Virus record (IMG/VR): IMGVR_UViG_3300009108_000480
From: a virus
Taxonomy: Duplodnaviria > Caudoviricetes
Reading direction: 5' to 3' (one strand)
Length of the DNA stretch: 64,000 nt
Shown here: positions 1 through 14,091 of the stretch, piece by piece
Layout of the letters: each line of letters starts with the position of its first letter
Position numbering within the stretch: the stretch's first letter is position 1
Notes under the pieces: generated by a model
The model's database searches: none
Told to the model about the DNA's origin: nothing
What the model saw: only the letters and a program-made list of their open reading frames with translations
Position numbers and translations under genes: made by a program

Positions 1-936
1 TTCACCTAAAGCGAAATGCACCACCTTTGTTGGTTTCAATCCAAGAGACCTACACCAATGTTTTTGTTCGTCGAAGTATTTTTCAACCATGTAATCTACA
101 TTATAATTTTTCATTAACTGTAAACCAAGACCCGAGGCAAGCCTGTTAGCAACGTTTTCATCATTGCTTATCTGCATTGGATCTTTTATTTTTTCCCTTG
201 TCATTCGTAATGCTATTCTGGCATTTCCTACTGGAAACGCTTTACTGAAACTAAAACTTAAAGACTTAATGCAAGTTGGTGTCAAATCAATTTGTAGAGT
301 ATCATACGTCGCGTTGGGTATGTATATGAAATCTAACATTACTGGTATGCCAATTCTTTCACACTGTTCCAACAAATCTTTTTGCTGTGGATGTTCGTCA
401 CCTAACCGTGCAAAAGGAAAACTTAATATTACAACGTCATCGGCACCCAAATCGTCATCTTCTATGTACGCCCATTTAAGTTCTAAATGTTTCCAAACCT
501 CCATGTGCCACCAGTACTCTCCTTTGAATACTCGAAATCTTTTATCCCGGTATTTCAAATAAAAATTTACAAAGTATTCTTGTGAACCTTGTGAGAAACA
601 ACTGTATTTGAAATCATTAATGCCTTTTAATTGATACCTTGGACATTGTTTCAACCACACCGGAAAATACTCCTCAAATTTTTTCACTACGTAAGGGTCT
701 CGTAAGGATTTGTTCAAATTGATACCTTGAATAAAATCTCTCAAGTGTTGATCCTTTATGCAGTTACCACTAGAATACACACTCCAAGATTTGGACCTTA
801 TCTCGTGGAATTCATCACTTACTGGAATATTCCATAGGTATTCACCCGGAACATCCAACTTCTTTTTTGCTGAGGCTGTCATTAGTGCCCAAGCAATCTT
901 TGTTATTTTATCTGTATTTTGTTTAATATCTGACAT
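1..936 (-). CDS. PLP-dependent aminotransferase-like enzyme (fold type I), 3'-truncated by the window edge
   Basis: Not in the ORF track. Manual translation from ATG at 936 (MSDIKQNTDK...) stays open for 312 codons to position 1. Contains VMLDFIYIP (PLP-binding Asp) and SFSFSKAFPVGNARIALR, matching the S-x-S-K...R motif of class I/II aminotransferases. Confidence 0.7.
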   Translation of the reverse strand, partial: MSDIKQNTDKITKIAWALMTASAKKKLDVPGEYLWNIPVSDEFHEIRSKSWSVYSSGNCIKDQHLRDFIQGINLNKSLRDPYVVKKFEEYFPVWLKQCPRYQLKGINDFKYSCFSQGSQEYFVNFYLKYRDKRFRVFKGEYWWHMEVWKHLELKWAYIEDDDLGADDVVILSFPFARLGDEHPQQKDLLEQCERIGIPVMLDFIYIPNATYDTLQIDLTPTCIKSLSFSFSKAFPVGNARIALRMTREKIKDPMQISNDENVANRLASGLGLQLMKNYNVDYMVEKYFDEQKHWCRSLGLKPTKVVHFALGE

Positions 937-1397
937 GATTCTTCGTAATATTTGTAATCTTCCTCCCAGGTAGGATCGTTGTTGTTCTTATTATGATTGG
1001 TCTTTAGAAACCATTTCAATACAGGTGTATCAAATTTTAATTCCCAATATCCTTTTGGCCCAAAAAACAAACAAGAATCAATCACAGAGTCTTTAGTAAC
1101 ATATCTGCTCTCCCATATCAAATGTTGCAAATCGATCCCGTCTATAGTTAATTTTTCTAATTCAAAATTTAGATCTTGTTTAATTTTATTGTTATCATCT
1201 AAAATAGTGTCCTTGTTCCCTTTGTTTTCAAAAAATATTCTTAAGACATTGTTCTCCTGCGTGTCTGCATCTAAAACTATTCTTCGCTCTACTTTACCAA
1301 CACAAATATCATTACTATTAAGTTCTATTCTGCAAATTGGATACTTGTTATTAACAGGATTAATATTTTTAAACTTAAATTCAAAATTTACTGACAT
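903..1397 (-). CDS. Hypothetical protein in the modification cluster
   Basis: 164-aa ORF overlapping both neighbours on the same strand; no motif recognised. Confidence 0.75.
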   Translation of the reverse strand: MSVNFEFKFKNINPVNNKYPICRIELNSNDICVGKVERRIVLDADTQENNVLRIFFENKGNKDTILDDNNKIKQDLNFELEKLTIDGIDLQHLIWESRYVTKDSVIDSCLFFGPKGYWELKFDTPVLKWFLKTNHNKNNNDPTWEEDYKYYEESCQILNKIQIK

Positions 1398-2842
1398 ACC
1401 TTTACTCCATATTTGTAGGTAAATGCATTGGCATCTTCGATGTCATTTACCATCGGTTGCCCCTTAATATTCAAACTAGTATTTAGAAGCATTGGGCACC
1501 CTGTCTTTTTTTTCCATGCTTTTAACAGCTCATAAAACCCTTCGTTATCGCTTTTAGACACGGTTTGCACACGGCTTGAGTTATCATAGTGTATAATGGC
1601 AGGACAGTCTTTACCATGCGTGTACGCCGCTGTAAACTGCATATAAGGGGTATTTTTTACGGGGGTTGGGAGAGCAAAATAGTCATTTACATCCTCTTCT
1701 AAAATAGCCGGAGCGAATGGTCTAAATTTCTGTCTTCTCTTAATTCGATTTACCATATCCTTAATCCCTGGACCTCTCGGATCAGCCAAAAGCGATCTAT
1801 TACCAAGTGCTCGTGGTCCGAACTCTGCTTTACCATTTGCAACTCCACAAATTTTACTTTCTGTTAATTCTTTTATAATTGCATCAACTGGATATTCACT
1901 TTTAATGTTATAACCTAAAAATGGATTTTTCCAATTTAAATGTTTTTGTTCTGAAGCCGCAATACATCCTATTGAAGATCCTGCATCACCCGGATTAGGA
2001 ATAATCCAAATATTATCAAACAATCCCATATTAGCAAGTCCTGAATTAGCTACACAATTTAATGCAACACCTCCTACATAAACTAAATTTTTACTACCAT
2101 ACTCAGATGCTCTTTGCCATAAATTTGCAAGACATTCTACAAGAACAGCTTGTACTGATGCGGCAAGATCAACTGGATCTGCGCCGGCGTGCCAATTACC
2201 TATACCTTGATGTAAGTTTTGTTTTAATTTAAAAGGACCTTGCTGAACAAAATCTTCATATATATCATCTTTATAATCTGGTTTTCCATATGCCGCCATT
2301 CCCATTAAAATATATTCTTCTTCTGCAGGTTTTAATCCACAACGTTGTGTAAATGCAGAATACAATATTCCTAATGAATGCGGATACCTTATAGTTTCTT
2401 TCCGTTCAATTTTATTTCCTTTTGCAACTGATATAGACACTGTATCCCATTCTCCAATTGCATCAACTGTAAGAATTACTGCTTCTTTAAATGGTGATGT
2501 AAAATATCCTGCCGCGGCGTGTGAATTATGATGATTTACATATTCATCAATTTTAATTCCAAACCTATCCAAATTCCATTGTGGCATTTCTGTATAACTT
2601 AAAGCATCACTATATTGTCCTGCATATAGTTGTCTAGTTTTCTTTAACAAAGGTTTTTCATAATAAACAACTTTATCAAACGGTCCATATGTTTTTGCTT
2701 CGTCAACAATTGCTTGATTTAAGAAATGATCATTTTTAATTCTTGAATAACGTTCTGAATGTGCGGCCCACAGAATTTCTCTGTCGTCTACTACTGCCAT
2801 TGCGGCGTCATGGTTCATGCAATTTATTCCTAATATCCTCAT
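1388..2842 (-). CDS. Carbamoyltransferase (NodU/CmcH/TobZ family)
   Basis: N-terminal HDAAMA...HSER, HHNSHAAAGYF, TVDAIGEW, GGVALNC, GDAG, EFGPRALGNRSLLA, KRRQKFRPFAP, SRVQTV and LLNTSLN motifs. Confidence 0.95.
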   Translation of the reverse strand: MRILGINCMNHDAAMAVVDDREILWAAHSERYSRIKNDHFLNQAIVDEAKTYGPFDKVVYYEKPLLKKTRQLYAGQYSDALSYTEMPQWNLDRFGIKIDEYVNHHNSHAAAGYFTSPFKEAVILTVDAIGEWDTVSISVAKGNKIERKETIRYPHSLGILYSAFTQRCGLKPAEEEYILMGMAAYGKPDYKDDIYEDFVQQGPFKLKQNLHQGIGNWHAGADPVDLAASVQAVLVECLANLWQRASEYGSKNLVYVGGVALNCVANSGLANMGLFDNIWIIPNPGDAGSSIGCIAASEQKHLNWKNPFLGYNIKSEYPVDAIIKELTESKICGVANGKAEFGPRALGNRSLLADPRGPGIKDMVNRIKRRQKFRPFAPAILEEDVNDYFALPTPVKNTPYMQFTAAYTHGKDCPAIIHYDNSSRVQTVSKSDNEGFYELLKAWKKKTGCPMLLNTSLNIKGQPMVNDIEDANAFTYKYGVKVCQ

Positions 2843-3276
2843 ATGCTATGACGTCCTATTAATTGAAATTTTTCTGTTATATCATTCTTAATCATAAATG
2901 CCCACATATCTGCATCATAGTGCGTTACTATAAAATCTGGATTTTTTGGTTCTTCAAACATTTGATTTGTGTCTTCAAATCTTCCTTTTTTAATCGTATC
3001 CATCCAAATTGTATAACTGGCATTAAAATCGTTTCTAGTACGTTCTGTTGGGCAAATAAAATCTGCTACAACAATTCTATTATCATTTGCGGCTTCTTGT
3101 GCTAATTGTTTCATTCTGTTTGCTTGTCTTACTCTACCTTCTGCAGAAAAATCAAAATCGTTTGCTTCTTTTCTTACCTCATCGGCATTTAAATGAACTG
3201 CCATTAGCATTGGTGCTAACTTTTTTGCTAATGTGGTTTTTCCTGATCCCGGTAATCCCATTATTAATATTTTCAT
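2839..3276 (-). CDS. Adenylylsulfate (APS) kinase-like P-loop kinase, short form
   Basis: GLPGSGKTT Walker A; LNADEVR, DFSAEGRVRQ, VADFICP and FEEP resemble CysC, but the protein is only 145 aa. Confidence 0.7.
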   Translation of the reverse strand: MKILIMGLPGSGKTTLAKKLAPMLMAVHLNADEVRKEANDFDFSAEGRVRQANRMKQLAQEAANDNRIVVADFICPTERTRNDFNASYTIWMDTIKKGRFEDTNQMFEEPKNPDFIVTHYDADMWAFMIKNDITEKFQLIGRHSI

Positions 3277-3381
3277 TTATTTGTATATAAAAGGGTCTTT
3301 TTTCTTTAGTTCTTTTAATCTTTTACGATAAGCAAATTCTTGCTTAATCTTTTTGATTAAATTTTTTAACCAACTAAACAT
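3277..3381 (-). CDS. 34-aa basic peptide MFSWLKNLIKKIKQEFAYRKRLKELKKKDPFIYK
   Basis: Manual translation. GGAGG Shine-Dalgarno upstream, start overlaps the end of the upstream gene, and the stop abuts the next ATG. Confidence 0.8.
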   Translation of the reverse strand: MFSWLKNLIKKIKQEFAYRKRLKELKKKDPFIYK

Positions 3382-4198
3382 TTTTTCCTCCTATTATTTC
3401 TTTAAACTTAGGTAACATTAATTTTACAGCATCTAGGTGTGCTTTGTCTAGCGGATGTGTTACCCCTTTTTCATATTCATTTAACGTTGCCCACTGGTTA
3501 AATCCCATCATTCTTTCACCAAAACTAAACCATTTGGTAAAATCTATTTCATTATATAATGCTTTCATAAACGAATCCTTCTCACTATGTAAAGTCATTT
3601 CATCATAAAACAAAGTATTATCTGCAAGTGTAAACATAAATGGAATTTTTTTCTTTTCCAATAAATTTTGCAACCAAATAATTGATTTCCAACTCAAATA
3701 TAATTCATGATATTCGTTAGCCGCATTTTTATATAACGAATTTGCAAAATCACTTACACCAGTATTTTTTAATAAATCTCTTCTATGTTTCCATACTTCT
3801 TGTTGTGGTTCCGATCCTGATAACTCTCTAAATGCTTCGGCTTCACCTTGTACTGTATCCCATGGTGTTATTGTTGCCCAACGAGTATTTTCTAAATTTT
3901 TATGCCTTGGCATTGCCCAATCATACCGTGATAAAAATGACCACATTACAGCAACTCCAGTAATATCTTTTAAATTTCCTACGGCGTTAAAAACTCTACG
4001 AGCAATTCCTGTATTACCAGAACCTGGCCTTGCTGTACAAACATAATCGTCAGGCTGACAAAGATTTAATTCTTGACTTAAAATGTATGCCCAACTTTGT
4101 TTAGATGGTGTTTTACCTTCGTTATCATCTGACAATTCATGTCCAAATGTAAAACTACAACCGCCTGCTATAAATTTTTTTACAACTTTTTTATTCAT
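3374..4198 (-). CDS. SGNH/GDSL-like hydrolase or acyltransferase (GCS variant)
   Basis: IAGGCSFTFG block I, ARPGSGN block II, and C-terminal THP. Confidence 0.6.
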   Translation of the reverse strand: MNKKVVKKFIAGGCSFTFGHELSDDNEGKTPSKQSWAYILSQELNLCQPDDYVCTARPGSGNTGIARRVFNAVGNLKDITGVAVMWSFLSRYDWAMPRHKNLENTRWATITPWDTVQGEAEAFRELSGSEPQQEVWKHRRDLLKNTGVSDFANSLYKNAANEYHELYLSWKSIIWLQNLLEKKKIPFMFTLADNTLFYDEMTLHSEKDSFMKALYNEIDFTKWFSFGERMMGFNQWATLNEYEKGVTHPLDKAHLDAVKLMLPKFKEIIGGKNV

Positions 4199-5357
4199 AA
4201 ATTTTTAATACTTTATTTAAAAGTGGAAAAACATCTCCAAAATTTTCTTCTCTATACTTGTCTGTTTGTAAAATACGTTCTTTTCTTTGTTTTTGTATTT
4301 CTCTAGAATCTCTATGTGCTGAATTCATAAATCTTAATGTAGGTTTAAAATCGTTTAAATCTGAATAACGTGAATTTACAATATTTTTTATTTGTTTTGG
4401 TAATGTTTGAATATTAAAATAATCCGGATCAAAACAAGTATTAACATAAAAAAATGTTGGTTCAAATTGTCTTACCCATAATGCAATTTTTGCCAAACTA
4501 AAAATGTTAAAAATACTAATTGTTGTACAAATTTGAAATTCCATATTTGCTAATTGATATACTTTAAATTGATTTAGATTATAATTTACTTCTTTCCAAT
4601 TTGCAGGATGTCTTTGGTATTGAAATTGTTCTCCTACATCATCAATACTAAACGCAATTTCAACTCTTTTAAAATGTTTCCACAAATCAAAAATTTCTCT
4701 ACCCGGGTAATGTGTTCCATTTGTATTATAATGTATATCTTGATTTTTAGCATACCCTTTTTCAACACAATGTTCTAATATTTTAAAATGATTATGTATC
4801 ATAAAAGGTTCTCCGCCTGTGAATTCAAAATATTCTACATCTTCTAATACTTCTTTTATATCATCAAAAAATTGTGGATTCTTTTTAGGCCATCCACCTT
4901 CTGTTAAGTGCTTTCTTGCAACTGGATTTTCTCCATAGTCTAATTCTTCCTGTGCCCATTTACTAGAACTCCAACTACCACATATTCTACATTTTAAATT
5001 ACATACATTTCCTAACTTAAAATCTATAAATTTTAAATTTGTTTCACTGTCTGGTGTCCAGTCTTTTAAACTATGTTTCATTTTGTAAAGTGAATTCATA
5101 CGTTTACTAATCTTTCCAGCACTTTCTTCTTGCCAACAACTTTGACATCCTATCGGTTTTTTACCGTCTTTAAATTGTTGTCTTAATTTTTCCATATACT
5201 CTGAATTCTGTATTGTTTTAAGATTTGTTTCATATACCTTATAATTTGGAATAGTACCTTTATACAAACAACAAGGCGATGCTGAGCCATTTACGTCAAT
5301 TTCTAAACTAGTCCACGGCAACGGGCAAATGTTTGATTTTATATACTTGTCCACCAT
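4191..5357 (-). CDS. Radical SAM enzyme 1 with N-terminal Twitch/SPASM-like domain
   Basis: CNLKCRIC (CxxxCxxC), TGGEP, YNTNG; N-terminal CPLPW...PCC...CQSC. Confidence 0.92.
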   Translation of the reverse strand: MVDKYIKSNICPLPWTSLEIDVNGSASPCCLYKGTIPNYKVYETNLKTIQNSEYMEKLRQQFKDGKKPIGCQSCWQEESAGKISKRMNSLYKMKHSLKDWTPDSETNLKFIDFKLGNVCNLKCRICGSWSSSKWAQEELDYGENPVARKHLTEGGWPKKNPQFFDDIKEVLEDVEYFEFTGGEPFMIHNHFKILEHCVEKGYAKNQDIHYNTNGTHYPGREIFDLWKHFKRVEIAFSIDDVGEQFQYQRHPANWKEVNYNLNQFKVYQLANMEFQICTTISIFNIFSLAKIALWVRQFEPTFFYVNTCFDPDYFNIQTLPKQIKNIVNSRYSDLNDFKPTLRFMNSAHRDSREIQKQRKERILQTDKYREENFGDVFPLLNKVLKIYE

Positions 5358-6700
5358 TCTAATACCTTTTTATTTTTACCTAATATTTTTTTAATATCTG
5401 TTCCTCTAATTCTATCTAAATATTCTAGATGTTTTTTTCCTTCTCTAAGACCTTCCCAATACAATTTTGTTGAATATTTTTCTTGATTGGTTGGGTGCGA
5501 TTTTAAATCTTTTAATCCTGCAAAAAAAGCCATATTAAAAACATTAGGCTTATCTGTAATTTTATTTTGCACTTCTGACACTATTTCTTCTAAAATATCT
5601 CTTGGCAAACACAAAGGACTTAACAAAAGATCATTAGTGAAACTAAAAACTTTTTTACACAATAATGGTACTTTTAATTCCTTACTTAATTTATACATAT
5701 TTTCTAAATCAAATAAACCCGGCAATGTAACAGTTAAATCTAATTGTAATTGCCGTGGATGCTTAACAAATTTTCTGGCATACTGCATATTTTTAAACCA
5801 TTGTTTATAATCTAATCCTGTTCTAATATATTCTCCAATTTCTCCTGTACCGTCTATTGATGCATTAATTTGCCAATCTTGAAAATGTATTAAACAATCA
5901 TCAAATAAATTTTTTCCATAAAAGTCTATTCTACTCATATTAGAATTATATCGTGCAAATACACTATTTGCATAACCTAACTCTACAACCCTCTGCATAG
6001 CTGTCCAATGTATCTTCCACATTAAAGGTTCACCACCACACCAATAAAATTCTTTAATTCTTTTTTCTTCTATTGCTTCTGTAAATTCTTTAACTACTTG
6101 TTGATCATGAAATTTTTGTAATCTTTCTTTAATATCTTTCCTTCCCCAAATTCTTTTGTTTTCATAATCTACTGTTCCGTGCTTTTTATTTTCTGCCTCC
6201 CACGTGCTTGATAACATATCACCACACATTCTACAACTAAAATTACATAAATTTGAAAATCTATAATCGAAACTAGTAACTTTCATTTGTGTATGCCCTG
6301 TTTCATCGGTTTTCTCAAATGCTTCATTTATTTGATTGGAATACATTCGATTAAAATGCTGTCTATATACGTTTGCATTTAAAAGTTTATAATTACAAGT
6401 TTCACACTGTGGTATTTCTTTTCCTGCCATTAAATCTTTTCTAACACCCTTCATATAATTAGAATTCCAATGTTCTTCAAGAGTAGGCAAATTTAATTTA
6501 ACACTACCGTCGGATTCTTGCTTATCAATATACTGCTTAAAGTTTGTAAATCCTTCCAAACTAGCACAACACAACCTTCTTTCCATTTGTGGTGACAAAT
6601 ACGTATGCACCCATGGTGCCATACAAAATGTTTTATTTCCTTCAGAAGGTTTATTTCTTTTCATACTTGTTAAATAACTCCTTCCATTCTGGAAATACAT
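5339..6700 (-). CDS. Radical SAM enzyme 2 with N-terminal Twitch/SPASM-like domain
   Basis: CNFSCRMC, CGGEP, ASIDG; N-terminal CMAPW...LCC...CETC. True start is probably ATG at 6664. Confidence 0.92.
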   Translation of the reverse strand: MYFQNGRSYLTSMKRNKPSEGNKTFCMAPWVHTYLSPQMERRLCCASLEGFTNFKQYIDKQESDGSVKLNLPTLEEHWNSNYMKGVRKDLMAGKEIPQCETCNYKLLNANVYRQHFNRMYSNQINEAFEKTDETGHTQMKVTSFDYRFSNLCNFSCRMCGDMLSSTWEAENKKHGTVDYENKRIWGRKDIKERLQKFHDQQVVKEFTEAIEEKRIKEFYWCGGEPLMWKIHWTAMQRVVELGYANSVFARYNSNMSRIDFYGKNLFDDCLIHFQDWQINASIDGTGEIGEYIRTGLDYKQWFKNMQYARKFVKHPRQLQLDLTVTLPGLFDLENMYKLSKELKVPLLCKKVFSFTNDLLLSPLCLPRDILEEIVSEVQNKITDKPNVFNMAFFAGLKDLKSHPTNQEKYSTKLYWEGLREGKKHLEYLDRIRGTDIKKILGKNKKVLEWWTSI

Positions 6701-7943
6701 CTAGTGTTTTTTCGTTCCTAATTTCATCATATTTTCGTGTTTGTGCAAAATGTAAATCCAAATGTTTTTGATTATCTGTTTTAAACATCCAATTTAATGC
6801 TGATTCAAACCCTTTAGTTGCCCTTGTTAATGGGTCTTTATCTTTTAACCATTTCATATGTGCATCATACTTTTCTTTTACTTGCTGTTTAAACTCAGGT
6901 GGAAGTAAATCTATTCTTTGCCAAGTAGGATGTTGTAATAAATTATAATTGAAATCTTGTGATTTAATTAATCCTTGTTCTACCCAACTTTTATGAAAAT
7001 CACAAACGTGTAAAGAATTAACTAAACCAACAGTAGAACTTATATAAAAATCTACTTTAGGACAAACTTCCATCATTCTTTTTCTATTAGCAACAATATC
7101 TTTCCATACAGTACCTTTACGCATTAATTCTCCACGTGGGCCTTCTGCATCTAAACTTGCACCAATTGAAACTGAATCAAATTTGTTCCATAGCTCAAAA
7201 ACATCTATGTCTTTAAATTTAGTTCTACTAAAATTAGTATTATAAATTAATCTTACGTGATACATTTTACGTTTATCTAATTCTTTTAATATTCTATAAT
7301 GTTCTTCCATAATAATTGGTTCACCTCCAGCAAAATAAAATTGTTCTGTGTGCTCAAATGATTCTAACATCTGTTCCCACAAATCGTTTGTATATCTACC
7401 AACTCTCATTATTTTTGCATGGGGAGGAGGACTACCTGTTAATTTTTTATGGTCTTCATACCAGTTAGAACTAAACCATGTACCACAACTTCTACAAGCC
7501 ATATTGCATAAGTTGGAAAAACGTATATCCCAATATTTCATTACAAAGTCAGCAGTACCGTCAGGTTGTGTTGAATCAACTAGTCCAATATTATGTCCAA
7601 AGTGCTTATTAGAACTTAAACGTAAACTAAAAAATCCTGATTTTTCTTGGTCATAACACTTTATACATTCACGTGATTTTTTATTATTCAACATTTTCAA
7701 ACGCATTTCTTTCATTTTATCATTATTAAAAACTTCTTTTAAACTTTGCTTGTTTAAATCACCTACTGGATAAGGATCAAAAGCAAAACAACAAGGATAT
7801 GCTCTACCATCTGGATATGCGTGAAGATGCATCCACGGTAACATACAAAATGATTCACTTTCTATTAACAACTCCTTTTGTTTAGGAGTCATATTTTTTA
7901 TTTTTAATTTCTCAGGCTCTTTTGCCCCGTACTCATATGCCAC
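6651..7943 (-). CDS. Radical SAM enzyme 3 with N-terminal Twitch/SPASM-like domain
   Basis: CNMACRSC, AGGEP, YNTN, ASLD; N-terminal CMLPW...PCC...CIKC. Confidence 0.92.
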   Translation of the reverse strand: MAYEYGAKEPEKLKIKNMTPKQKELLIESESFCMLPWMHLHAYPDGRAYPCCFAFDPYPVGDLNKQSLKEVFNNDKMKEMRLKMLNNKKSRECIKCYDQEKSGFFSLRLSSNKHFGHNIGLVDSTQPDGTADFVMKYWDIRFSNLCNMACRSCGTWFSSNWYEDHKKLTGSPPPHAKIMRVGRYTNDLWEQMLESFEHTEQFYFAGGEPIIMEEHYRILKELDKRKMYHVRLIYNTNFSRTKFKDIDVFELWNKFDSVSIGASLDAEGPRGELMRKGTVWKDIVANRKRMMEVCPKVDFYISSTVGLVNSLHVCDFHKSWVEQGLIKSQDFNYNLLQHPTWQRIDLLPPEFKQQVKEKYDAHMKWLKDKDPLTRATKGFESALNWMFKTDNQKHLDLHFAQTRKYDEIRNEKTLDVFPEWKELFNKYEKK

Positions 7944-9279
7944 GGTACCATTCTCCTATAATTGGGAAAGTTTTTTCAAAATTCTTTCCTCTTCTTTTAT
8001 CATATTGTGTATAAAATGTTTTAAAATCTTTTCTTAACTTATCAACTGATGCAGAATCCTTATGTGGAGTCTTCACAACATCCAAATAATCCACTAATCT
8101 TTGGACCTGATTAATTTCCATTTCCTCTAATAGCGAGCCAAATTGCCGTAAAAATTTTTCTAAATTCTGTTTAAACATATTACGCAAGTCGTCGGGTAGA
8201 ACTAAAGCACTTTGAAAGCTAGGAAATCTTAAAATATTTAAAGTAAAATTAAAAGGTATTCCATAATGCTTACAAGCACTTTCTTTTTGTTTAACAATTG
8301 TTTCTAAAAACTGTGGCAACGATTCTAAACATAAAGCATTAATGGTACACATATTATGAATTTGTGATGGCACACGATCTTGCATCATGTTAACAACTTC
8401 AACAAACCATTGTGAATAATTTAAACCATCTCTAATATATTCTGCTTGTTCGTTTGTTGCCTCCATTGATGTATATAAATGAAAGTTGTCAAAGTGTTTA
8501 AGTTTGGCTTTGAACTTTTCTATCATTTCACTTTTTGCCCCTAAATTGGAGTTTATAGCCAAACGCATATTTGGGTTAATTTTATCCTTTTGTGTCTCAA
8601 ACCAATCTAATAATCGCCATAAATTTGGTGACATCATTGGTTCTCCACCTGTAATTCTTAATTCATCTAAACTTTTATGCAAATCTGTCTCCCACCATTT
8701 GTAAAATGCTTCTACATATGGATTTGCTTCATCTTTTTTATATGGTTCTGCAGAATCGTGTGCATGAGTAAAGTGATTACGCCCATCTGTTGTTAAATTT
8801 TTATATGGACCTTTATATTTGATGTCATTTGCCCACGTTGTACTAAATGCAGGATTACAATATGAACAAGCAAAGTTGCAAGTTCTATCAAATGCAATTT
8901 CTAAAGTTTTTAAATTATAATCTGTTTTATAATCTGTTCTAAATGCATCATCTAATGCCATATCAGAATAAATTTTTGATTTATATACTCTATCTGATAT
9001 TGCATCTCGTCCTATGTCTTCAATTTTCCAACAATATTCACATCCTGCAGGTCGTTCTCCAACTTGCATTTGTCTTCGTTGTTCTTTTTTCTGTTTTGTA
9101 TTGTGTATTGCAGAAGGATTTGTTTTTATTTCTTCCAGATTAATTGCGTGTGGCAATGGATGGTGACAAGATGTTGTTTGTCCTGATCCTAACCATATAG
9201 TCGCATTGTACCATTTAGCCGCACAAAATGATGCTGACTTTGTATCTAGTTTTTCTTTTTTAAATTTAAGGTCTTCCAT
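7933..9279 (-). CDS. Radical SAM enzyme 4 with N-terminal Cys-rich domain
   Basis: CNFACSYC, TGGEP; N-terminal CAAKW...SCHH...CEYC. Confidence 0.92.
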   Translation of the reverse strand: MEDLKFKKEKLDTKSASFCAAKWYNATIWLGSGQTTSCHHPLPHAINLEEIKTNPSAIHNTKQKKEQRRQMQVGERPAGCEYCWKIEDIGRDAISDRVYKSKIYSDMALDDAFRTDYKTDYNLKTLEIAFDRTCNFACSYCNPAFSTTWANDIKYKGPYKNLTTDGRNHFTHAHDSAEPYKKDEANPYVEAFYKWWETDLHKSLDELRITGGEPMMSPNLWRLLDWFETQKDKINPNMRLAINSNLGAKSEMIEKFKAKLKHFDNFHLYTSMEATNEQAEYIRDGLNYSQWFVEVVNMMQDRVPSQIHNMCTINALCLESLPQFLETIVKQKESACKHYGIPFNFTLNILRFPSFQSALVLPDDLRNMFKQNLEKFLRQFGSLLEEMEINQVQRLVDYLDVVKTPHKDSASVDKLRKDFKTFYTQYDKRRGKNFEKTFPIIGEWYRGI

Positions 9280-10001
9280 TCTTTTAATTTCCTATATTCC
9301 TCTTCTGGTGGTTCTATGTCACTTTTAAAAATAATATCTTTAACCCATTTATAATGTGTAAATGGTAACGGATGTAGATCACTTTTTTCTGCAAATTGTT
9401 CAGGATATAATTCATAAGCAAAGTCATCTAATCCACCAAAGTCTTTATAAAATATAAACTTACTCCAATCAATTTTATTGTATAATGCCCTTTGTCCATT
9501 TGACATTTTATCTTTGTCGTGCATAATAATATGTCCTCGATAACACATCATTTTATATTCAATATTATGCTTTTCTAAATACATTTGTGTAAACAAAATC
9601 CTTTCAAGCATACGTACATCATTTTGCCTTTCGTTTTGAAACCAACGTACATAATATTCATGTTTGTCTTTAAAATAATGACCACCATAAAAAACATTCC
9701 AATTAAAGTCTGGATCCCAACGAGAATATGTAACAGTTTCATCTTTTTTCAAATCTTGGTCAATCTTATCGTGTACAATTTCATATCTATTTGTTCCTGA
9801 CCACATAATATAAACTTTCTCTGTACTACTCTTCCATTTATTAATAGCATTATAAACTGATCTCATTATAATTTCGTTAGAGTTACCTGCCGCTCCTAAA
9901 TTTTTTAAATCATACCCATTTTCAAACCATGATAAAAAGTTTGGCCAACATGGCCATTTATATTTTGTATAACTACAACCTGTTGTTATTATTTTTTTCA
10001 T
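9246..10001 (-). CDS. SGNH/GDSL-like hydrolase or acyltransferase (GCS variant)
   Basis: ITTGCSYT, NLGAAGNSN and DLHP motifs. Confidence 0.6.
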   Translation of the reverse strand: MKKIITTGCSYTKYKWPCWPNFLSWFENGYDLKNLGAAGNSNEIIMRSVYNAINKWKSSTEKVYIMWSGTNRYEIVHDKIDQDLKKDETVTYSRWDPDFNWNVFYGGHYFKDKHEYYVRWFQNERQNDVRMLERILFTQMYLEKHNIEYKMMCYRGHIIMHDKDKMSNGQRALYNKIDWSKFIFYKDFGGLDDFAYELYPEQFAEKSDLHPLPFTHYKWVKDIIFKSDIEPPEEEYRKLKEWKTLNLKKKN

Positions 10002-11368
10002 AAGTTTTTACACTCCGTCCAAAATTCCGCCATTTCTGGAAACGTATTTTCAAAATGCGTTCCACGTCTGCGATCATGTTCGTTAAAAAATGCGTAAAAG
10101 TTCTTTTTATTTTGCGTATTATCGTTTTTATTATTGCGCCAATAAGCTAAATTGCGTAACATTTTTTGAATTTCAAAATCTTTGAATCCTCCAAACCCTT
10201 CATCTTCGCCAGAAAATTCTCTCATATATTCTATATTCGCTTTGTGTATCTCTTGATACGATTCTGGCAATAAAGTTATCTGTTGCCATGCTGGTTGTCT
10301 TAATAATGGTATGTCAAACCATACTCTTTGATACGTTTTTGAATGCTTTTCTCTTAACAAACGTATATCTCTTAATAAATCATTTAAACTAGTAACACTT
10401 AAATTATTATAGGTAATAATAAACGTTATAGAATTACGCACTGGTATACGTTCCAAAAATTCATCCACATTATCCAACATACGATTAAAATCTAATCCAT
10501 AACGTATGTATTCTGCTTTTTTGCCATATGCATCTACTGATACGAATTGCATCATATGTTCTACTGCTTCATTTAAACATATTCTTTTAACCATATCAAA
10601 ATACTTGTTTTTTAATTTTTCATCTGGTGGACAGAAATTTGACGTTACGTTTAAATGTAAATCGGGTTTAGGGTGATATGTAATGTATTCAAGTACTTCA
10701 TATGTATTTTTATCCATTAAAGGTTCACCCCCTGTCATTCTGAAATGTTTTAAATTTTTATATAACGTAGGCCACCATCTCCAAAATGCATCAACATATG
10801 GATTATGTTCTCTATGAGGAATAGGTCTACGTCTGCCAGTAAAATGTTCTGGAGCGTTGTGGGGAGGAGACGTTGGATATTGGCCATATACAGCAATCTC
10901 CTGTCCCCACGTGGTCGAGAATTGAGGTGAACAATAAGAACACTTGAGGTTACAAGCATTATTAAAATTAACTTCTACGTATCTCGGCGTCCATCCTGAG
11001 TCAATTGGTTTATTTTTAATCGACTCAAAATCTTGTATAGCCCATGGTTCACCTGAACGATACTGTCTATCTGACATTTGTCCAGTATCTTCTATATTCC
11101 AGCAATAAGAACATCCTTCAGGACGTTCACCATTGAGCATTTGTTGTCTTTGTTTTAATTTCTCCGGTGTATTATGTAATTCAGCAGGGTTACTATCTAA
11201 ATTTGTAGAATCTATTTGGTGCAAAGGTGGATGATAACAGCTATTTGTTAATCCTGTAGGCAGATGTAATGAAACTTGATTCCATTTAGCCAAACACATA
11301 GTAGGAGAAATTGTTTCTAATTTCTTTGCGGCAACTAGAGCATCTGATTTATAATCACTTTGTTTCAC
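9998..11368 (-). CDS. Radical SAM enzyme 5 with N-terminal Cys-rich domain
   Basis: CNLKCSYC, TGGEP; N-terminal CLAKW...SCYH...CSYC. Start revised from 11437 to GTG at 11368, which follows an AAGGAG Shine-Dalgarno. Confidence 0.9.
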   Translation of the reverse strand: MKQSDYKSDALVAAKKLETISPTMCLAKWNQVSLHLPTGLTNSCYHPPLHQIDSTNLDSNPAELHNTPEKLKQRQQMLNGERPEGCSYCWNIEDTGQMSDRQYRSGEPWAIQDFESIKNKPIDSGWTPRYVEVNFNNACNLKCSYCSPQFSTTWGQEIAVYGQYPTSPPHNAPEHFTGRRRPIPHREHNPYVDAFWRWWPTLYKNLKHFRMTGGEPLMDKNTYEVLEYITYHPKPDLHLNVTSNFCPPDEKLKNKYFDMVKRICLNEAVEHMMQFVSVDAYGKKAEYIRYGLDFNRMLDNVDEFLERIPVRNSITFIITYNNLSVTSLNDLLRDIRLLREKHSKTYQRVWFDIPLLRQPAWQQITLLPESYQEIHKANIEYMREFSGEDEGFGGFKDFEIQKMLRNLAYWRNNKNDNTQNKKNFYAFFNEHDRRRGTHFENTFPEMAEFWTECKNL

Positions 11369-12248
11369 GATCTTGTACTCCTTTATTAATATGTTGTGGC
11401 ATACAGAATTTAAACAATTTACTTTCGTCGGCATCATAGTCTGCTACTGGCAAATCCAATCTTCGTCTTACTGATTCTCCATATGCTTGTAAATCCGTTC
11501 CAATATCTTCAACAGTTTTAGTAAATACACTGGCCATTTGTTCCATATCTCTTACTTCAAGAATATTTGCTCCTCTAACAGTTGTTGCATAACAACCCAT
11601 TCTTGCACCTAACATAGCAAATCGACCATATTCCATATCAGCACCTACACTCATCCATGTTATTAACACCCGCAAGTTCGAAGGCTGAATTAATTTTTTA
11701 AAATGCATTGGTGCAACAGGTAATCCTTGTTCTAAACTCATTTTAGTACCTTCTCGATATCCTGCAATAAAAGCCTGTTGTGGATCTACATTTATAATTG
11801 TTGTTGAATAACAATTATGCAAATTTTCATGAGGTACTGTCCAACAAAAATCAATTTGTGCTTTTTCACTATCTGCATTTTCATGAGTTTTCATTTGTAA
11901 ACACGTTTCTTTATCCCAACCTACTAACCCACCATTGCCATATACTAAACCATTTACATTATTTTTTGCTCTCCAACGATGTACAGCTTTTGGATTTGTT
12001 TTTGTCCAATCTAATGATTCTAATAAAAATGCTTCATCTATAATATTATCACCATCAACTGATATGAAAAAATCTGTTTCTGCTTTTTCTGCCGCGGCTT
12101 TGTGTGCATTGTCAAATCCTACAACACCATCTATTCTTTTTGCCCAAGGTACTTTGCTTAATAAGTCTGCCCAATTTTCTTCCTTATTGGGTTCCTTATA
12201 GCTGATATAAACAAAGTCTAAATCTGATATTCTTATTCTATCCGCCAT
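11355..12248 (-). CDS. Glycosyltransferase-like protein (GT-A fold)
   Basis: FVYISYKEP N-terminal strand, AHKAAA...TDFFISVDGDN (DxD motif). Confidence 0.6.
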   Translation of the reverse strand: MADRIRISDLDFVYISYKEPNKEENWADLLSKVPWAKRIDGVVGFDNAHKAAAEKAETDFFISVDGDNIIDEAFLLESLDWTKTNPKAVHRWRAKNNVNGLVYGNGGLVGWDKETCLQMKTHENADSEKAQIDFCWTVPHENLHNCYSTTIINVDPQQAFIAGYREGTKMSLEQGLPVAPMHFKKLIQPSNLRVLITWMSVGADMEYGRFAMLGARMGCYATTVRGANILEVRDMEQMASVFTKTVEDIGTDLQAYGESVRRRLDLPVADYDADESKLFKFCMPQHINKGVQDRETK

Positions 12249-12529
12249 TCAAATCCTTCTCTATTATGTCCTATTACCCAATATGGATCCCCATTATAAA
12301 AATGATAACCTACCTCTGCTAAATGTAGTGTTGGTTGTAATTGTTCTGCAGGAATACGCTTTTTTCTTGTAATTTTTTTGTCTTTATATTCAAAGTTTTC
12401 TATTCCTGCATTAATAACTTGTAAATATTGTTCTAAAGTCACTTCTATTTTTTCTTTATTAAAAGTAAGATAATGTTTTTTAGGTGGAGTAGGCTTAAAC
12501 TCTTCTAATGCTTTCCAAAAATTAGTCAT
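12233..12529 (-). CDS. Hypothetical protein
   Basis: 98-aa ORF overlapping both neighbours in the operon. Confidence 0.7.
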   Translation of the reverse strand: MTNFWKALEEFKPTPPKKHYLTFNKEKIEVTLEQYLQVINAGIENFEYKDKKITRKKRIPAEQLQPTLHLAEVGYHFYNGDPYWVIGHNREGFEWRIE

Positions 12530-13334
12530 AAAATTCCTTTATTAATTTTTTATTATGATAATGAAATATTCTTGATTGTTTATAACCACCTGAATATATG
12601 TATTCTCCAACTAAAGGATGACCTACCATCATTGTATATAGATATTGATCATTAATATATGCACGACTTAATCCATTTACTCCACTTTTATTATGCATAA
12701 AATTAAACCATTCAAATTTGATTTGTTTTTCACACAATGGATCTTGAATTTTTAGTGCAAGAGCATAAACAACATCTGTTGTTGAGTGTTTATCATGACA
12801 ATTTATTAAAAATGTATCTCTAACTGTATTCCAATTTAACATAATATCTTTACAAATATTATAAAATGATTGTGCTTGTTTACTTTTTCTAAAATAAGTT
12901 AATCCATTGTATACATCTGGCAAATTATTTGTTTTAAAAAGTTTTCTATAAGGTGTATTAGTAATAATTGTATCTCTATAACATCTAACATGATACGAAA
13001 ACACCATATTATGCTGATGCAAATAATTCCACCACCAGTCTGTATTTGATGTGAACAACATATCTGCTTCTAATTTAATTGTATGTTTAAAAGGTGTTAA
13101 ATTAAAAATTTGCCACTCATTATTCATCTTCCATTCTTGATCTTTACTATAATCATTTTTTAATACAATAACTTTATCAATTTCTTCTTTATGTTCTACA
13201 GGTTTATCAGTAATAACACATACTTGATTATGCTTGTTATGTTTTTTAATAGAACTTGCAAGTTTTTTGCTTAATTCTACATAGTCAGTTGTAGAATTGT
13301 TCAATGCAAACCAAACATATCCTCTATCAGACAT
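12522..13334 (-). CDS. Glycosyltransferase-like protein (GT8-like)
   Basis: RGYVWFA...LASSIKK...VCVITD, TPFKHTIKLEADMLF (DxD-type motif), YNGLTYF. Confidence 0.65.
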   Translation of the reverse strand: MSDRGYVWFALNNSTTDYVELSKKLASSIKKHNKHNQVCVITDKPVEHKEEIDKVIVLKNDYSKDQEWKMNNEWQIFNLTPFKHTIKLEADMLFTSNTDWWWNYLHQHNMVFSYHVRCYRDTIITNTPYRKLFKTNNLPDVYNGLTYFRKSKQAQSFYNICKDIMLNWNTVRDTFLINCHDKHSTTDVVYALALKIQDPLCEKQIKFEWFNFMHNKSGVNGLSRAYINDQYLYTMMVGHPLVGEYIYSGGYKQSRIFHYHNKKLIKEFYD

Positions 13335-14091
13335 TTACAAACTCCTTATCCATTACATGAACATCTTGTAATTCTGTTATACCAACTTTTTTGCCATATT
13401 TAAATGTGACTCCTGTATCTGACATATCTAACACATCAACTTCGTGTGCTAACATTGCCATTGGAGTAGGAATAAAGTTTTTATGAGAAATCATTCCATT
13501 AAGTTGATGTAGTGCAATTGCAAATGCAAAATCATTTCTATAATTTCTATATTTGATCCGATATAAATTTCTATAATGCTCATAACGTTTTTGTATTAAC
13601 TGAATTAAATCAAACATCTGCTTTGCAAAAGTTGATTTACGAAATATTGTTACTGTTGCCCAAACTATTGGTACAGTTGATTCATTTTTTCCTTCAATCA
13701 TATCTTCACCAGTTAAATCGTGTACTTTATTATGAAGTAAAAAATCATAATCTGTGTTTGTGTATGTTAAAAGATTATCTGTAAACACAAAATAATCACA
13801 ATCCATAAGAATAGTAGTATCATAAGGTGAATGTTCGTATGCTAAACTTCTTTCTAAATTATGCCAAGCAATATTTTTTCCACGATAACTTCGTCTATTA
13901 CCGACTGCATTGTCTACTAGTTTATAATTTATAAACCCTAACGGTTTGAATTGTTTATAAGTTTCAATATTAGTGACTACTGTTATTTCTAATTTTAAAT
14001 GTTTTTGTATTTGTGCGATACATCGTTCTGCTAACAAATGATAGTTAACTTCCGGTGTATTGAAACAGTACATTAATACACCTGTAGTCAT
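13327..14091 (-). CDS. Glycosyltransferase-like protein (GT8-like)
   Basis: SPYDTTILMDCDYFVF (DxD) and RNDFAFAIAL; appears paralogous to 12522-13334. Confidence 0.65.
   Translation of the reverse strand: MTTGVLMYCFNTPEVNYHLLAERCIAQIQKHLKLEITVVTNIETYKQFKPLGFINYKLVDNAVGNRRSYRGKNIAWHNLERSLAYEHSPYDTTILMDCDYFVFTDNLLTYTNTDYDFLLHNKVHDLTGEDMIEGKNESTVPIVWATVTIFRKSTFAKQMFDLIQLIQKRYEHYRNLYRIKYRNYRNDFAFAIALHQLNGMISHKNFIPTPMAMLAHEVDVLDMSDTGVTFKYGKKVGITELQDVHVMDKEFVNV

Follow-up and report, generated by a model that had tools for sequence, protein, structure and literature searches.

A densely packed operon in a T4-like jumbo phage, marine and uncultured, raises the question of what such a set of genes would build and to which acceptor the product would be attached. 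The operon occupies positions 1-14408 of the window, the 64-kb stretch of DNA analyzed here, and consists of 17 minus-strand ORFs that run from 14408 to 1, with overlaps of 4-50 nt between nearly all of them (Table 1). The fibre-like genes at 14470-22545, directly upstream, match PHROG tail-fibre and virion-protein families, in agreement with a first-pass annotation that had described an overlapping same-strand operon behind tail-fibre genes. Past the window start, the cluster continues with DegT, a 442-aa protein without an assigned family, and then convergent SDR and PIG-L genes.

Table 1. Features of the operon and its upstream border, listed from the 5′ end of the operon.
Feature	Coordinates	Strand	Length	Remarks
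Ser/Thr-rich (29%) fibre-like protein	14470..15450	-	326 aa	adjoins operon; 36-65% conserved
Sigma-70-like promoter TTGACT-17-TATAAT	14415..14443	-		top site of scan, 11/12
First operon gene, no family name	14088..14408	-	106 aa	41-89% conserved in relatives
GT8-like GT-A-fold transferase	13327..14091	-	254 aa	invariant D97-x-D99
GT8-like GT-A-fold transferase	12522..13334	-	270 aa	E-A-D motif, invariant D91
Protein without family name	12233..12529	-	98 aa	poorly conserved, 25-46% identity in relatives
Candidate GT-A-like transferase, conserved	11355..12248	-	297 aa	invariant D65-G66-D67
rSAM E, N-terminal-twitch, SC[H/Y]HP subtype	9998..11437	-	479 aa	NF033640 337 bits
Second SGNH-like protein (DUF6071)	9246..10001	-	251 aa	PF19547 31.4 bits
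rSAM D, N-terminal-twitch, SC[H/Y]HP subtype	7933..9279	-	448 aa	NF033640 304 bits; alignment
rSAM C, N-terminal-twitch, CC subtype	6651..7943	-	430 aa	NF033640 397 bits
rSAM B, N-terminal-twitch, CC subtype	5339..6700	-	453 aa	NF033640 307 bits
rSAM A, N-terminal-twitch, CC subtype	4191..5357	-	388 aa	NF033640 366 bits
SGNH/GDSL-fold protein	3374..4198	-	274 aa	GCS block I, Asn62, His248
Basic micro-protein, invariant C-terminus ...YRKRLKELKKKDPFIYK	3277..3381	-	34 aa	own AGGAGG RBS
Short P-loop kinase, APS-kinase-like	2839..3276	-	145 aa	APS_kinase PF01583 45.8 bits
NodU/TobZ-type (Nol-like) carbamoyltransferase	1388..2842	-	484 aa	phrog_1601 332 bits
Lineage-specific protein	903..1397	-	164 aa	missing from all related loci compared
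Possible divergent fold-type I PLP-like enzyme	1..936	-	312 N-terminal aa of 356	C-terminus past window start

Exactly five ORFs across the window carry a CxxxCxxC motif and all lie in the operon, as many radical SAM (rSAM) enzymes as had been counted before. Each matches the NCBIfam family NF033640 (N_Twi_rSAM) at 304-397 bits, above the cut-off of 170 bits, and retains intact CxxxCxxC and GGEP motifs as well as an N-terminal 4-Cys module. The SPASM domain spans residues 11-75 of rSAM A, followed by Radical_SAM at 115-257, and residues 33-97 of rSAM C. Pairwise identity among the five is 22-27%; orthologues of each are 47-88% identical and keep a fixed order in ~70 contigs. For rSAM C, orthologues at 47-88% identity occur in 80 viral loci, and an identical 264-nt contig is present in one metatranscriptome library. 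In public gene calls, rSAM E starts at 11368 and has 456 aa. The enzymes had earlier been likened to BtrN, as part of an analogy with BtrR and TobZ, but their twitch domain is N-terminal and a comparison with BtrN and all solved twitch enzymes gave no significant match, leaving a resemblance only. To our knowledge, NF033640 has no experimentally tested member and none with a known substrate, and the assignment of these enzymes to sugars is therefore drawn from gene context only. Twitch/SPASM enzymes act on peptides more often; this preference, together with a conserved micro-protein within the operon, counts against a sugar substrate, as do the 4-8 extra N_Twi_rSAM genes that relatives carry elsewhere in the genome, distant from GT8-like/SGNH-like genes. 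A natural rSAM-GT2 fusion, a new observation here, was found in an array that interleaves 9 rSAM genes with 5 GT2 genes, and further NF033640 members adjoin a GT2 or UDP-sugar dehydrogenase gene.

Two of the three glycosyltransferases (GTs) proposed in the first-pass annotation are confirmed by modeling as predicted GT8-like GT-A transferases. The AF2 model of the 254-aa protein (pLDDT 92.6) matched the UGGT catalytic domain, GlyE, LgtC, glycogenin, and LARGE1 (GT8/GT24) in Foldseek (E 4e-7 to 1e-5, TM 0.45-0.58), and the 270-aa protein is paralogous to its family (hhalign 98.5%). The third, for which HMM and PDB searches returned no match, is a lead only: its alignment has 69 invariant columns and its Atlas neighbour cluster is auto-named ‘Glycosyltransferase 2-like’ (0.99). 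Model-based comparison likewise confirmed the two predicted SGNH-fold proteins noted before. The AF2 model of the 274-aa protein (pLDDT 90.3) matched acetyl-xylan esterase Est2A and GDSL proteins (Foldseek E 1e-5 to 1e-3), with G13 and N62 invariant and S15 and H248 nearly so in its family; the other was identified through its paralogy to the first (BLASTP E 2e-7) and its DUF6071 match. This second protein is variably present, and a sixth rSAM occupies its slot in some relatives.

The carbamoyltransferase and kinase calls were also borne out. The carbamoyltransferase matches Carbam_trans_C (PF16861, 180.5 bits) and Carbam_trans_N (PF02543, 160 bits), its translation shows an HHNSH metal-site-like motif, and it is 46% identical to the copy of Ralstonia phage RsoM2USA and ~30% to cyanophage/pelagiphage copies. 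The kinase, though short, has the Walker A motif GLPGSGKTT and matches phrog_10255 (119.8 bits), but it falls far short of the apsK equivalog cut-off; it is found in a minority of related loci and follows the carbamoyltransferase in the 50% identity tier. Overlooked at first pass is a constant companion of the carbamoyltransferase, a micro-protein that is present in 127 of the 139 loci and ends in an invariant ...DPFIYK. Its gene lies between the SGNH-like gene and the carbamoyltransferase; the 17 C-terminal residues are invariant despite abundant synonymous codons, and all three stop codons are used. A peptide-seeded scan of GTDB genomes returned 17 true copies, each adjoining carbamoyltransferase and/or SGNH-like/rSAM genes, and the cultured phage RsoM2USA has an unannotated copy with its carbamoyltransferase.

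At the window start, the PLP enzyme proposed earlier fared less well. The truncated protein gave no match in Pfam, NCBIfam, or PHROG, PF00155 appears in just 13-27% of the members of its Atlas neighbour clusters, and it is lineage-unique, being missing from 80 related loci with only 25-27% matches in 3 loci. Its PLP identity is a lead only; the genuine PLP aminotransferase is DegT (245 bits), outside the window start. Profile searches with the neighboring 164-aa protein found no family match, and family and homology searches with the 98-aa protein found none either. The expectation that the cluster would co-occur across related genomes holds for its core, which is syntenic in ~70 viral contigs of two identity tiers, and independent gene shuffling is therefore largely not what we see. 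The parts that do shift are the kinase, DUF6071, the carbamoyltransferase-peptide module, and the distal sugar genes. Nucleotide-sugar genes at the distal end differ among relatives, as in O-antigen/glycan loci.

The GT-A and SGNH folds, the carbamoyltransferase, the adjacent DegT, SDR, and PIG-L genes, and the variable nucleotide-sugar end all point to the sugar-handling locus suggested at first pass, and we consider it probable that its substrate is a sugar or glycan. A TM-helix check across the cluster proteins found zero membrane helices, all proteins being soluble, and no flippase, polymerase, or polyprenyl-P transferase is among the cluster genes, which indicates a soluble acceptor; this solubility and the adjacent fibre genes favour attachment to a virion protein. 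Our preferred reading, to which we give an about even chance, is a phage-encoded, entirely cytoplasmic operon that builds and tailors sugars, most likely for a virion protein. A virion acceptor, for example the Ser/Thr-rich fibre proteins encoded alongside, is, taken by itself, a tentative proposal, and the choice of the protein next to the operon, whose gene has an identical 708-nt contig in metatranscriptome data, is speculative. For mycobacteriophages, glycosylation of the virion by phage GTs is established (PMC12363180, citing Freeman et al. 2023).

In the scheme we favour, the variable module (SDR dehydratase/epimerase, DegT aminotransferase, PIG-L deacetylase) would supply an amino- or deoxy-sugar donor, and the two GT8-like and probably the third GT-A-like transferases would put sugars on the soluble acceptor. 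Each of the five non-redundant N-terminal-twitch rSAMs may abstract H from a specific sugar C-H, with keto-sugar oxidation, epimerisation, deoxygenation, or C-C/C-X bond formation as possible outcomes. The product of the transferases would then receive its decoration from the NodU/TobZ-type carbamoyltransferase, working with its obligatory partner, the DPFIYK micro-protein; from SGNH-fold proteins acting as esterases or acyl-transferases; and, in some cases, from the P-loop kinase. Transcription would start from the operon's own sigma-70-like promoter.

This promoter, reported here for the first time, occupies the region's only sizeable gap. Its -10 ends 6 nt 5′ of the ATG at 14408, and this spacing together with the lack of an RBS implies that the operon mRNA is leaderless; TTGn...TATAAT...ATG is conserved in 33 of 39 distinct relatives, in keeping with a conserved, apparently leaderless promoter. 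No T4-type late motif, (T)ATAAATA, was found in 1-15450, and an ATAAATA late-type motif lies at 15501-15507, 51 nt upstream of the fibre-like gene adjoining the operon. With a sigma-70-like promoter of its own and without a T4-type late motif, the operon thus does not suggest the late expression anticipated earlier and appears to fit early expression better, a timing that one would not most simply expect of virion decoration. No terminator was found between the fibre genes and the operon, so transcription from the former could read through into the latter.

The conserved promoter and absent late motif also speak for an early operon that alters or supplies the sugars of host envelope glycans (LPS, capsule, S-layer glycan), which could bring about superinfection exclusion or block progeny re-adsorption to infected cells. 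The micro-protein, whose N-half is amphipathic and whose middle is poly-basic, would then tether the carbamoyltransferase to the membrane. The PHROG category ‘moron, auxiliary metabolic gene’, the usual reading of such cyanophage sugar genes as host-surface auxiliary genes, and the O-antigen-like variable end agree with this. We nevertheless regard a host target as unlikely, as the cluster has no membrane protein, flippase, polymerase, or lipid-carrier transferase, and the position behind the fibre genes, fixed in several lineages, would go unexplained.

Were the product a peptide, the micro-protein would be a precursor or scaffold whose C-terminus is rSAM-modified, carbamoylated, and glycosylated into something RiPP- or cofactor-like, perhaps released by the SGNH-fold hydrolase, in the manner of MftA/MftC/MftF (mycofactocin) or PqqA/PqqE. 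Its invariant C-terminus, its place in the operon, the peptide habit of Twitch/SPASM enzymes, and secondary NCBIfam matches of the rSAMs to PapB, StsB, DynA, and WgkB would suit such a product. This is still improbable: in the peptide-seeded search the constant partner is the carbamoyltransferase, several loci with both (L152, L153, and L162) lack rSAM genes across the 7-8 kb retrieved, rSAM arrays without the peptide motif exist (no match in L142), there is no RRE domain, and a single peptide for at least five rSAMs and a variable sugar module is a poorer fit. Highly improbable, too, is the decoration of a phage DNA base by the kinase, PLP enzyme(s), rSAMs, GTs, and carbamoyltransferase, akin to thymidine hypermodification or glucosyl-/arabinosyl-hmC systems. 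Every protein is soluble, and phage thymidine hypermodification pathways reportedly comprise kinase, PLP, rSAM, and GT sets (Lee et al. 2018 PNAS), but profile searches of the operon found no DNA-binding, glycosylase, TGT, or hydroxymethylase-type gene, most relatives dispense with the kinase, and no known DNA pathway uses as many as five conserved rSAMs. Least probable of all is a diffusible aminoglycoside- or pseudo-oligosaccharide-like metabolite made by BtrN/BtrR/TobZ logic and released unattached in infection, for although rSAM, DegT-type aminotransferase, TobZ-type carbamoyltransferase, and GTs also occur in aminoglycoside pathways and the carbamoyltransferase, small ORF, GDSL, and APS-kinase recall the accessory genes sxtI-J-K-L/O (PMC2885083), the operon lacks a cyclitol synthase, an exporter, and a resistance gene, the rSAM sequences are not BtrN-like, and the fibre-gene position and synteny are left unexplained.

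As the first-pass annotation had stated, no characterized phage pathway of this kind came to light: our literature search found no paper on such a pathway or cassette. For a sugar-tailoring operon with a virion acceptor, as we propose, comparison can be made with cyanophage S-CAM1 and pelagiphage HTVC008M, in which the carbamoyltransferase lies amid heptose, GT, and UDP-Glc dehydrogenase genes, and in S-CAM1 these carbamoyltransferase/sugar genes adjoin tail-fibre genes.

Exactly five ORFs of the 64-kb window carry a CxxxCxxC motif, and all five belong to one catalogued family of radical SAM (rSAM) proteins, NF033640 (N_Twi_rSAM, "twitch domain-containing radical SAM protein"). Their scores of 366, 307, 397, 304 and 337 bits, covering model positions 1-398, lie well over the curated NCBIfam cut-off of 170 bits and confirm the five radical SAM enzymes reported by the first-pass annotation. 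The proteins match the model end to end and, as in the family, a four-cysteine auxiliary module precedes the CxxxCxxC core: an alignment of the five shows four invariant N-terminal cysteines in a SPASM/twitch-like module, followed by CxxxCxxC and GGEP, and in two of them Pfam finds SPASM (residues 11-75 in one, 33-97 in the other) before Radical_SAM. Pairwise identity is only 22-27%, and there are two subtypes, with C..PW..CC..CxxC in rSAM A, B and C and C.AKW..SC[H/Y]HP..CxYC in rSAM D and E. The family is only catalogued, and in this phage it is present as a fixed set of five old paralogues. A tblastn search with rSAM C gave three weak matches only, at 21-22% identity (Vibrio phages K566 and K567; RsoM2USA). 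NF033640 is large (6,052 clusters at 50% identity, E <= 1e-30), and neither a tested member nor a paper on it was found in the literature searched. In the PDB, the rSAM profile found only an unnamed rSAM protein (8vpo) and viperin at E 1e-4 (best match, E 1.7e-4), and neither BtrN nor a solved NF033640 structure.

Whole related IMG/VR records (354 kb, 98% complete; 289 kb; 197 kb) hold 9-13 N_Twi_rSAM genes each, five of them in the cluster and the remaining 4-8 scattered elsewhere. In these records the SGNH-like copies are concentrated at the cluster, and the GT8-like pair is found only there. Extra N_Twi_rSAM genes of the 354-kb record (G001, from which locus L074 comes) lie, for example, at 102850, 123754, 243523, 265897, 290561 and 310436. 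A sugar context recurs among other family members. At positions 10001-12385 of a 29-kb contig (L142), an N-twitch rSAM is naturally fused to a GT2 domain (62.6 bits), and this contig interleaves nine rSAM genes with five GT2 genes and also carries an amine oxidase. Two further sampled members adjoin a GT2 gene in one case and a UDP-sugar dehydrogenase in the other. Further representatives combine two rSAMs in one protein of 800-1200 aa or have TPR tails.

The window contains T4-type structural and replication genes, including those for a gp23 capsid protein (PF07068, 329 bits), a gp20 portal (359 bits), a prohead protease, baseplate wedge and hub proteins, a gp55-like late sigma factor and gp46/47-like nuclease subunits. 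Its capsid protein shares 68-74% identity with the counterparts in the jumbo myoviruses Sinorhizobium phage Phosso, Vibrio 2.275.O, Pseudomonas PA5oct and Cronobacter GAP32. Metagenomes of marine, seawater and vent origin, from about ten studies besides the probable source study, contain window DNA, and a megablast search of positions 1-14500 against 50,697 phage records gave zero matches. The window therefore belongs to an uncultured marine T4-like jumbo phage. The same-strand block of overlapping genes described behind the tail fibre genes is borne out by the ORF layout, as every ORF from 14408 to 1 is on the minus strand and either overlaps or abuts its neighbour, with fibre-like genes upstream of the operon. 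Identical metagenome contigs show that the operon extends past the window start.

Features of the cluster and its surroundings (coordinates in the window)
Feature	Coordinates	Strand	Remarks
SDR epimerase/dehydratase and PIG-L-family deacetylase	beyond window start		convergent; follow the 442-aa protein
442-aa protein	beyond window start		follows the DegT gene; without family match
DegT/DnrJ/EryC1 aminotransferase	beyond window start		follows 1-936; PF01041, 245.3 bits, full length, over gathering score
1-936 protein	1-936	-	claimed PLP enzyme
Carbamoyltransferase	1388-2842	-	
P-loop kinase	2839-3276	-	
DPFIYK micro-protein	3277-3381	-	34-aa basic ORF between SGNH-like gene and kinase; own AGGAGG site
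SGNH-like protein 1	3374-4198	-	
rSAM A	4191-5357	-	
rSAM B	5339-6700	-	
rSAM C	6651-7943	-	
rSAM D	7933-9279	-	
SGNH-like protein 2	9246-10001	-	DUF6071
rSAM E	9998-11437	-	
297-aa protein	11355-12248	-	candidate third glycosyltransferase
98-aa ORF	12233-12529	-	
GT8-like protein 1	12522-13334	-	
GT8-like protein 2	13327-14091	-	
106-aa protein	14088-14408	-	first operon gene
Sigma-70-like site	14415-14443	-	TTGACT-17-TATAAT
326-aa protein	14470-15450		Ser/Thr-rich, fibre-like
Fibre-like genes	14470-22545		
693-aa Gly-rich protein	17548-19629	-	among fibre genes, in some relatives only; Hint/intein-like domain (weak Pfam matches, residues 397-494)
4537-aa ORF	23284-36897	-	between gp6-like wedge gene and fibre genes

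Of the other enzymes claimed for the cluster, the carbamoyltransferase holds up, with both of its domains above the gathering score (Carbam_trans_N, Kae1-like, 160 bits with a cut-off of 24; Carbam_trans_C, YrdC-like, 180.5 bits with a cut-off of 27). It scores 158 bits against the NodU equivalog NF041651, whose cut-off is 1000, and by its domains it is a member of the NodU/CmcH/TobZ family, not NodU itself. A short kinase is also present as claimed. It matches PF01583 at 45.8 bits over profile positions 5-92 of 152 only, and reaches 36 bits against the APS kinase (CysC) equivalog TIGR00455, where the cut-off is 138.7. With a partial profile match and the equivalog cut-off not reached, an APS kinase was rejected, and judged from its profile matches the protein is a generic P-loop kinase.

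Both SGNH proteins were substantiated, the first by its fold and the second by paralogy and DUF6071 membership. The model of SGNH-like protein 1 (pLDDT 90.3) matches Est2A, GDSL proteins and TesA (E 1e-5 to 5e-3, prob 1.00). Its candidate catalytic blocks comprise G-C-S with a nearly invariant S15, an invariant N62 and a nearly invariant H248, with no Asp three residues ahead of H248 (the Asp-x-x-His of SGNH block V). SGNH-like protein 2 is its paralogue (BLASTP E 2e-7). HMM searches gave no decisive match for these proteins, and the family profile found nothing meaningful in the PDB. Two of the three proposed glycosyltransferases stand. GT8-like protein 2 is modelled (pLDDT 92.6) as a GT-A fold closest to GT8/GT24 enzymes, with Foldseek matches to the UGGT catalytic domain, GlyE, LgtC and glycogenin (E 4e-7 to 1e-5) and invariant D97 and D99 (DxD), and GT8-like protein 1 is paralogous to it (hhalign 98.5%); the profile of this family found nothing meaningful in the PDB. 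For the third, the 297-aa protein, the indications are an invariant D-G-D and a neighbour cluster auto-named "GT2-like" in the Atlas protein-cluster neighbour search; it has no Pfam, NCBIfam, PHROG or PDB-profile match and is unrelated to the GT8-like pair by hhalign.

The PLP enzyme had been placed at 1-936. The full-length protein there (356 aa in identical metagenome contigs) has no Pfam match even at E 5, and its profile found nothing in the PDB. PF00155 (Aminotran_1_2) occurs in 13-27% of the proteins in its Atlas neighbour clusters and in 100% of those in one cluster lower in the ranking (rank 35, score 0.92), and the 1-936 protein contains an S-F-S-K motif. A PLP sugar aminotransferase does belong to the pathway, namely the DegT protein beyond the window start, outside the place given for it; the 1-936 protein, which has no HMM support, is a tentative candidate for a PLP enzyme. 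The 1-936 gene and its neighbour, both within 1-1397, are unique to this lineage. For the 442-aa protein the Atlas search returned viral hypothetical clusters only, and lenient Pfam scans of the family-less cluster proteins gave only noise.

IMG/VR searches seeded with rSAM C and with the carbamoyltransferase provided 134 loci for comparison. The kept gene order is fibre, 326-aa protein, 106-aa protein, two GT8-like proteins, 297-aa protein, rSAM E, D, C and B/A, SGNH-like protein and carbamoyltransferase. Each rSAM has its own orthologue in syntenic relatives. Co-occurrence of the cluster across relatives, a check proposed by the first-pass annotation, holds for this syntenic core, which is kept at two identity tiers (70-88% and ~50%), but not for the kinase, the DUF6071 gene (in whose place some relatives have a sixth rSAM), the 98-aa ORF and all genes between the carbamoyltransferase and the convergent backbone genes, a stretch where DegT, SDR and PIG-L types differ between relatives. 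Glycan loci show just this pattern, a constant core next to a nucleotide-sugar end that varies.

The micro-protein was found in 127 of 139 loci. Its N-terminal half is variable and amphipathic, while its last 17 residues, ending in DPFIYK, are essentially invariant in all tiers. The codons vary freely (six codons for Leu, four for Pro, and all three stop codons are used), and free synonymous change with invariant residues implies that selection acts on the micro-protein at the protein level. A scan of 185,579 GTDB genomes seeded on the peptide tail alone gave 50 matches, 17 of them true micro-proteins. A carbamoyltransferase lies within ~2 kb in 12 of these 17, and the remaining three distinct loci, which are short or come from contig ends, have SGNH-like and/or rSAM genes. 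In several GTDB loci a carbamoyltransferase is present with no rSAM within the 7-8 kb examined. The scan therefore ties the micro-protein to the carbamoyltransferase as a companion rather than to the rSAMs as a precursor. Most of these loci are MAG contigs, which may be mis-binned phage. On large contigs, the DPFIYK peptide and carbamoyltransferase occur together in a Haliscomenobacter MAG (L146/L159, 148- and 183-kb contigs) and a Neomarinimicrobiota MAG (L153/L162, 335- and 153-kb contigs), each maybe a mis-binned jumbo phage. Some relatives (L015, 14525-14632; L052, 15167-15262) encode a second, diverged micro-protein ending in DPYLYR or DPYVYK, directly after the SGNH-like gene and upstream of the canonical copy. 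A predicted complex of carbamoyltransferase and micro-protein (score 0.08, mark 0.34) speaks neither way, and a protein homology search with a 42-aa variant returned unnamed metagenome peptides only.

The promoter signals set the cluster apart from the structural genes. The late-promoter motif TATAAATA occurs 4 times in the window against 13 expected, always intergenic and before structural genes outside the cluster. ATAAATA, with 10 copies where 48 are expected, is down five-fold and marks the fibre genes and the 326-aa protein; positions 1-15450 contain no (T)ATAAATA. Late-motif sites lie at 40396, 46990, 53712 and 53745, and also at 15501, 17545, 21055 and 23281; three surviving copies run across the end of a fibre gene, covering its stop codon, and leave only 13-20 nt to the ATG that follows. 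By its motifs the cluster does not qualify as a T4-type late operon: there is no TATAAATA late promoter upstream, and a sigma-70-like site is found there instead. This site, the best of its kind in the region, falls within a 61-nt gap ahead of the first operon gene. Just 6 nt separate the end of its TATAAT (-10) from the ATG and an RBS is missing, an arrangement that implies a leaderless mRNA and is conserved in 33 of 39 distinct relatives. The sequence around the site includes an AT-rich palindrome (ATAATTAT). From these signals, early or constitutive expression of the operon is predicted. As the fibre genes and the operon have no terminator between them, read-through late in infection is possible. 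Contigs from RNA libraries include pieces identical to the 326-aa protein gene (14821-15527), rSAM C (7075-7336) and fibre genes, the first two from a metatranscriptome library of the probable source study; strand, ends and level are not readable from such contigs and DNA carry-over is possible, so they were counted neither for nor against expression, and stretches that they leave bare carry no meaning. RNA runs X23 and X24 yield the same pieces and probably represent a single data set that was filed twice. No RNA data set was listed as matching a 9.7-kb stretch, and single-gene searches gave small shares.

The extended cluster encodes 22 proteins, and all of them lack a membrane helix. This speaks for a soluble acceptor and against a lipid-linked polysaccharide pathway that is complete in itself; a classical Und-P-linked locus was rejected for the lack of membrane proteins. 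The all-soluble set, the sugar context and the adjacency to fibre genes are best read as a cytoplasmic glycan-building and tailoring line. We consider it probable that the cluster tailors a sugar or glycan, in which case each of the five rSAMs would make one distinct radical edit. Placement of this glycan on virion proteins is a more tentative proposal. A first rival to the tailoring line is remodelling of the host envelope, which the sigma-70-like promoter favours. A second is a peptide-based product; here, the DPFIYK peptide was rejected as primarily an rSAM precursor, the genome scan showing the carbamoyltransferase as its partner. DNA hypermodification and a free metabolite are the remaining rivals. 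A wider form of the tailoring reading, which we hold to be rather unlikely, is that N-terminal-twitch rSAMs perform undescribed radical carbohydrate or peptide-anchored chemistry, and that fixed sets of 5-13 of them in abundant marine jumbo phages, with a carbamoyltransferase needing the DPFIYK micro-protein as carrier or adaptor, would produce a hyper-modified fibre glycoconjugate. If true, it would amount to an oxygen-independent "glycan editing line" made by a virus, for which no cellular counterpart has been characterised.

Few radical SAM enzymes act on sugars, and new chemistry came to light with each one. In the present case, the large NF033640 family forms conserved, non-redundant sets in phages of marine metagenomes from at least ten studies. 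Virion decoration, if true, would exceed in elaboration any phage-encoded glycosylation known so far and would matter for host recognition, grazing or immune evasion; action at the host surface would be a new form of infection-time envelope remodelling. Our literature searches found no publication on the cassette or on any NF033640 member, and nothing relevant on N-terminal twitch rSAMs, on radical SAM in jumbo phages or on carbamoyltransferases and fibres in cyanophages. New in this analysis are the fold-level evidence for the SGNH and GT8-like proteins, the linkage of micro-protein and carbamoyltransferase, the minimal cassette of RsoM2USA, the rSAM-GT2 fusion, the all-soluble protein set and the conserved, predicted leaderless sigma-70-like promoter. 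The cultured RsoM2USA, the fusion and the previously unannotated micro-protein, a constant companion of the carbamoyltransferase, offer experimental handles.

The analogy drawn by the first-pass annotation to the BtrN/BtrR/TobZ logic of aminoglycoside pathways stands for enzyme classes (twitch-type rSAM, DegT-type PLP sugar aminotransferase, two-domain Kae1/YrdC-type carbamoyltransferase) but fails for membership. BtrN-type membership was ruled out, since the twitch domain is N-terminal here and C-terminal in BtrN and there is no significant sequence match; the BtrN model is absent from the NCBIfam matches of the five rSAMs. The cluster further differs in its five rSAMs to one or two aminotransferases, its lack of cyclitol genes and its viral setting. 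Mycofactocin (MftA/MftC/MftF) and PQQ (PqqA/PqqE) likewise have, within one operon, SPASM/twitch rSAM(s), a GT2-type transferase and a small peptide whose C-terminal aromatic residue is invariant. In contrast to them, the window operon has no RRE/PqqD domain, its rSAM auxiliary domain is N-terminal and its peptide tracks the carbamoyltransferase, not the rSAMs.

The tail of the DPFIYK micro-protein may resemble SxtK, a parallel that we offer as an analogy only. SxtK belongs to DUF5989, whereas the micro-protein has no TM segment and goes unrecognised by the DUF5989 model (PF19451), both for five variants at E 10 and at the peptide loci of three phage records. In bacteria, the genes for O-carbamoyltransferases such as SxtI have a GDSL-type gene and short, uncharacterised ORFs (sxtJ, sxtK) on their flanks, and the sxt cluster also has an APS kinase (PMC2885083). 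The sxtI-sxtJ-sxtK-sxtL set is thus alike in joining an O-carbamoyltransferase with short ORFs, a GDSL-type hydrolase and an APS kinase.

For the proposed target, the best precedent is given by mycobacteriophages Che8, Corndog and Myrna, whose phage glycosyltransferases decorate capsid and tail proteins, according to the passage of PMC12363180 citing Freeman et al. 2023. Those systems use one or two glycosyltransferases and host sugars, with no rSAM, carbamoyl or SGNH tailoring, and their acceptor is proven, whereas ours is inferred. The cyanophages S-CAM1, S-SSM7 and P-RSM6 and the pelagiphage HTVC008M (phrog_1601) share with the window a Nol-like carbamoyltransferase among sugar genes, which in these phages are glycosyltransferase, heptose, UDP-Glc dehydrogenase and nucleotide-sugar epimerase genes, and the S-CAM1 copy lies directly beside tail-fibre genes. 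These S-CAM1/HTVC008M-type enzymes show ~30% identity to the window copy, and their loci, in the stretches examined, differ in having no N-twitch rSAM, SGNH-like gene or DPFIYK peptide. The Ralstonia jumbo phage RsoM2USA (MG752970, ORFs 199-203) encodes an SGNH-like protein, an N-twitch rSAM, a second SGNH-like protein, the DPFIYK micro-protein, a third SGNH-like protein and a carbamoyltransferase 46% identical to the window copy. It differs in having one rSAM instead of five and no GT8-like gene within the 13.5 kb examined. Its peptide is an unannotated 36-aa ORF between ORF201 and ORF200 (L139, 5026-5136; MG752970, approx. 125891-126001); ORFs 199-203 are all annotated "hypothetical" and the genome paper is silent on them. 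RsoM2USA is the only cultured system found with this cassette.
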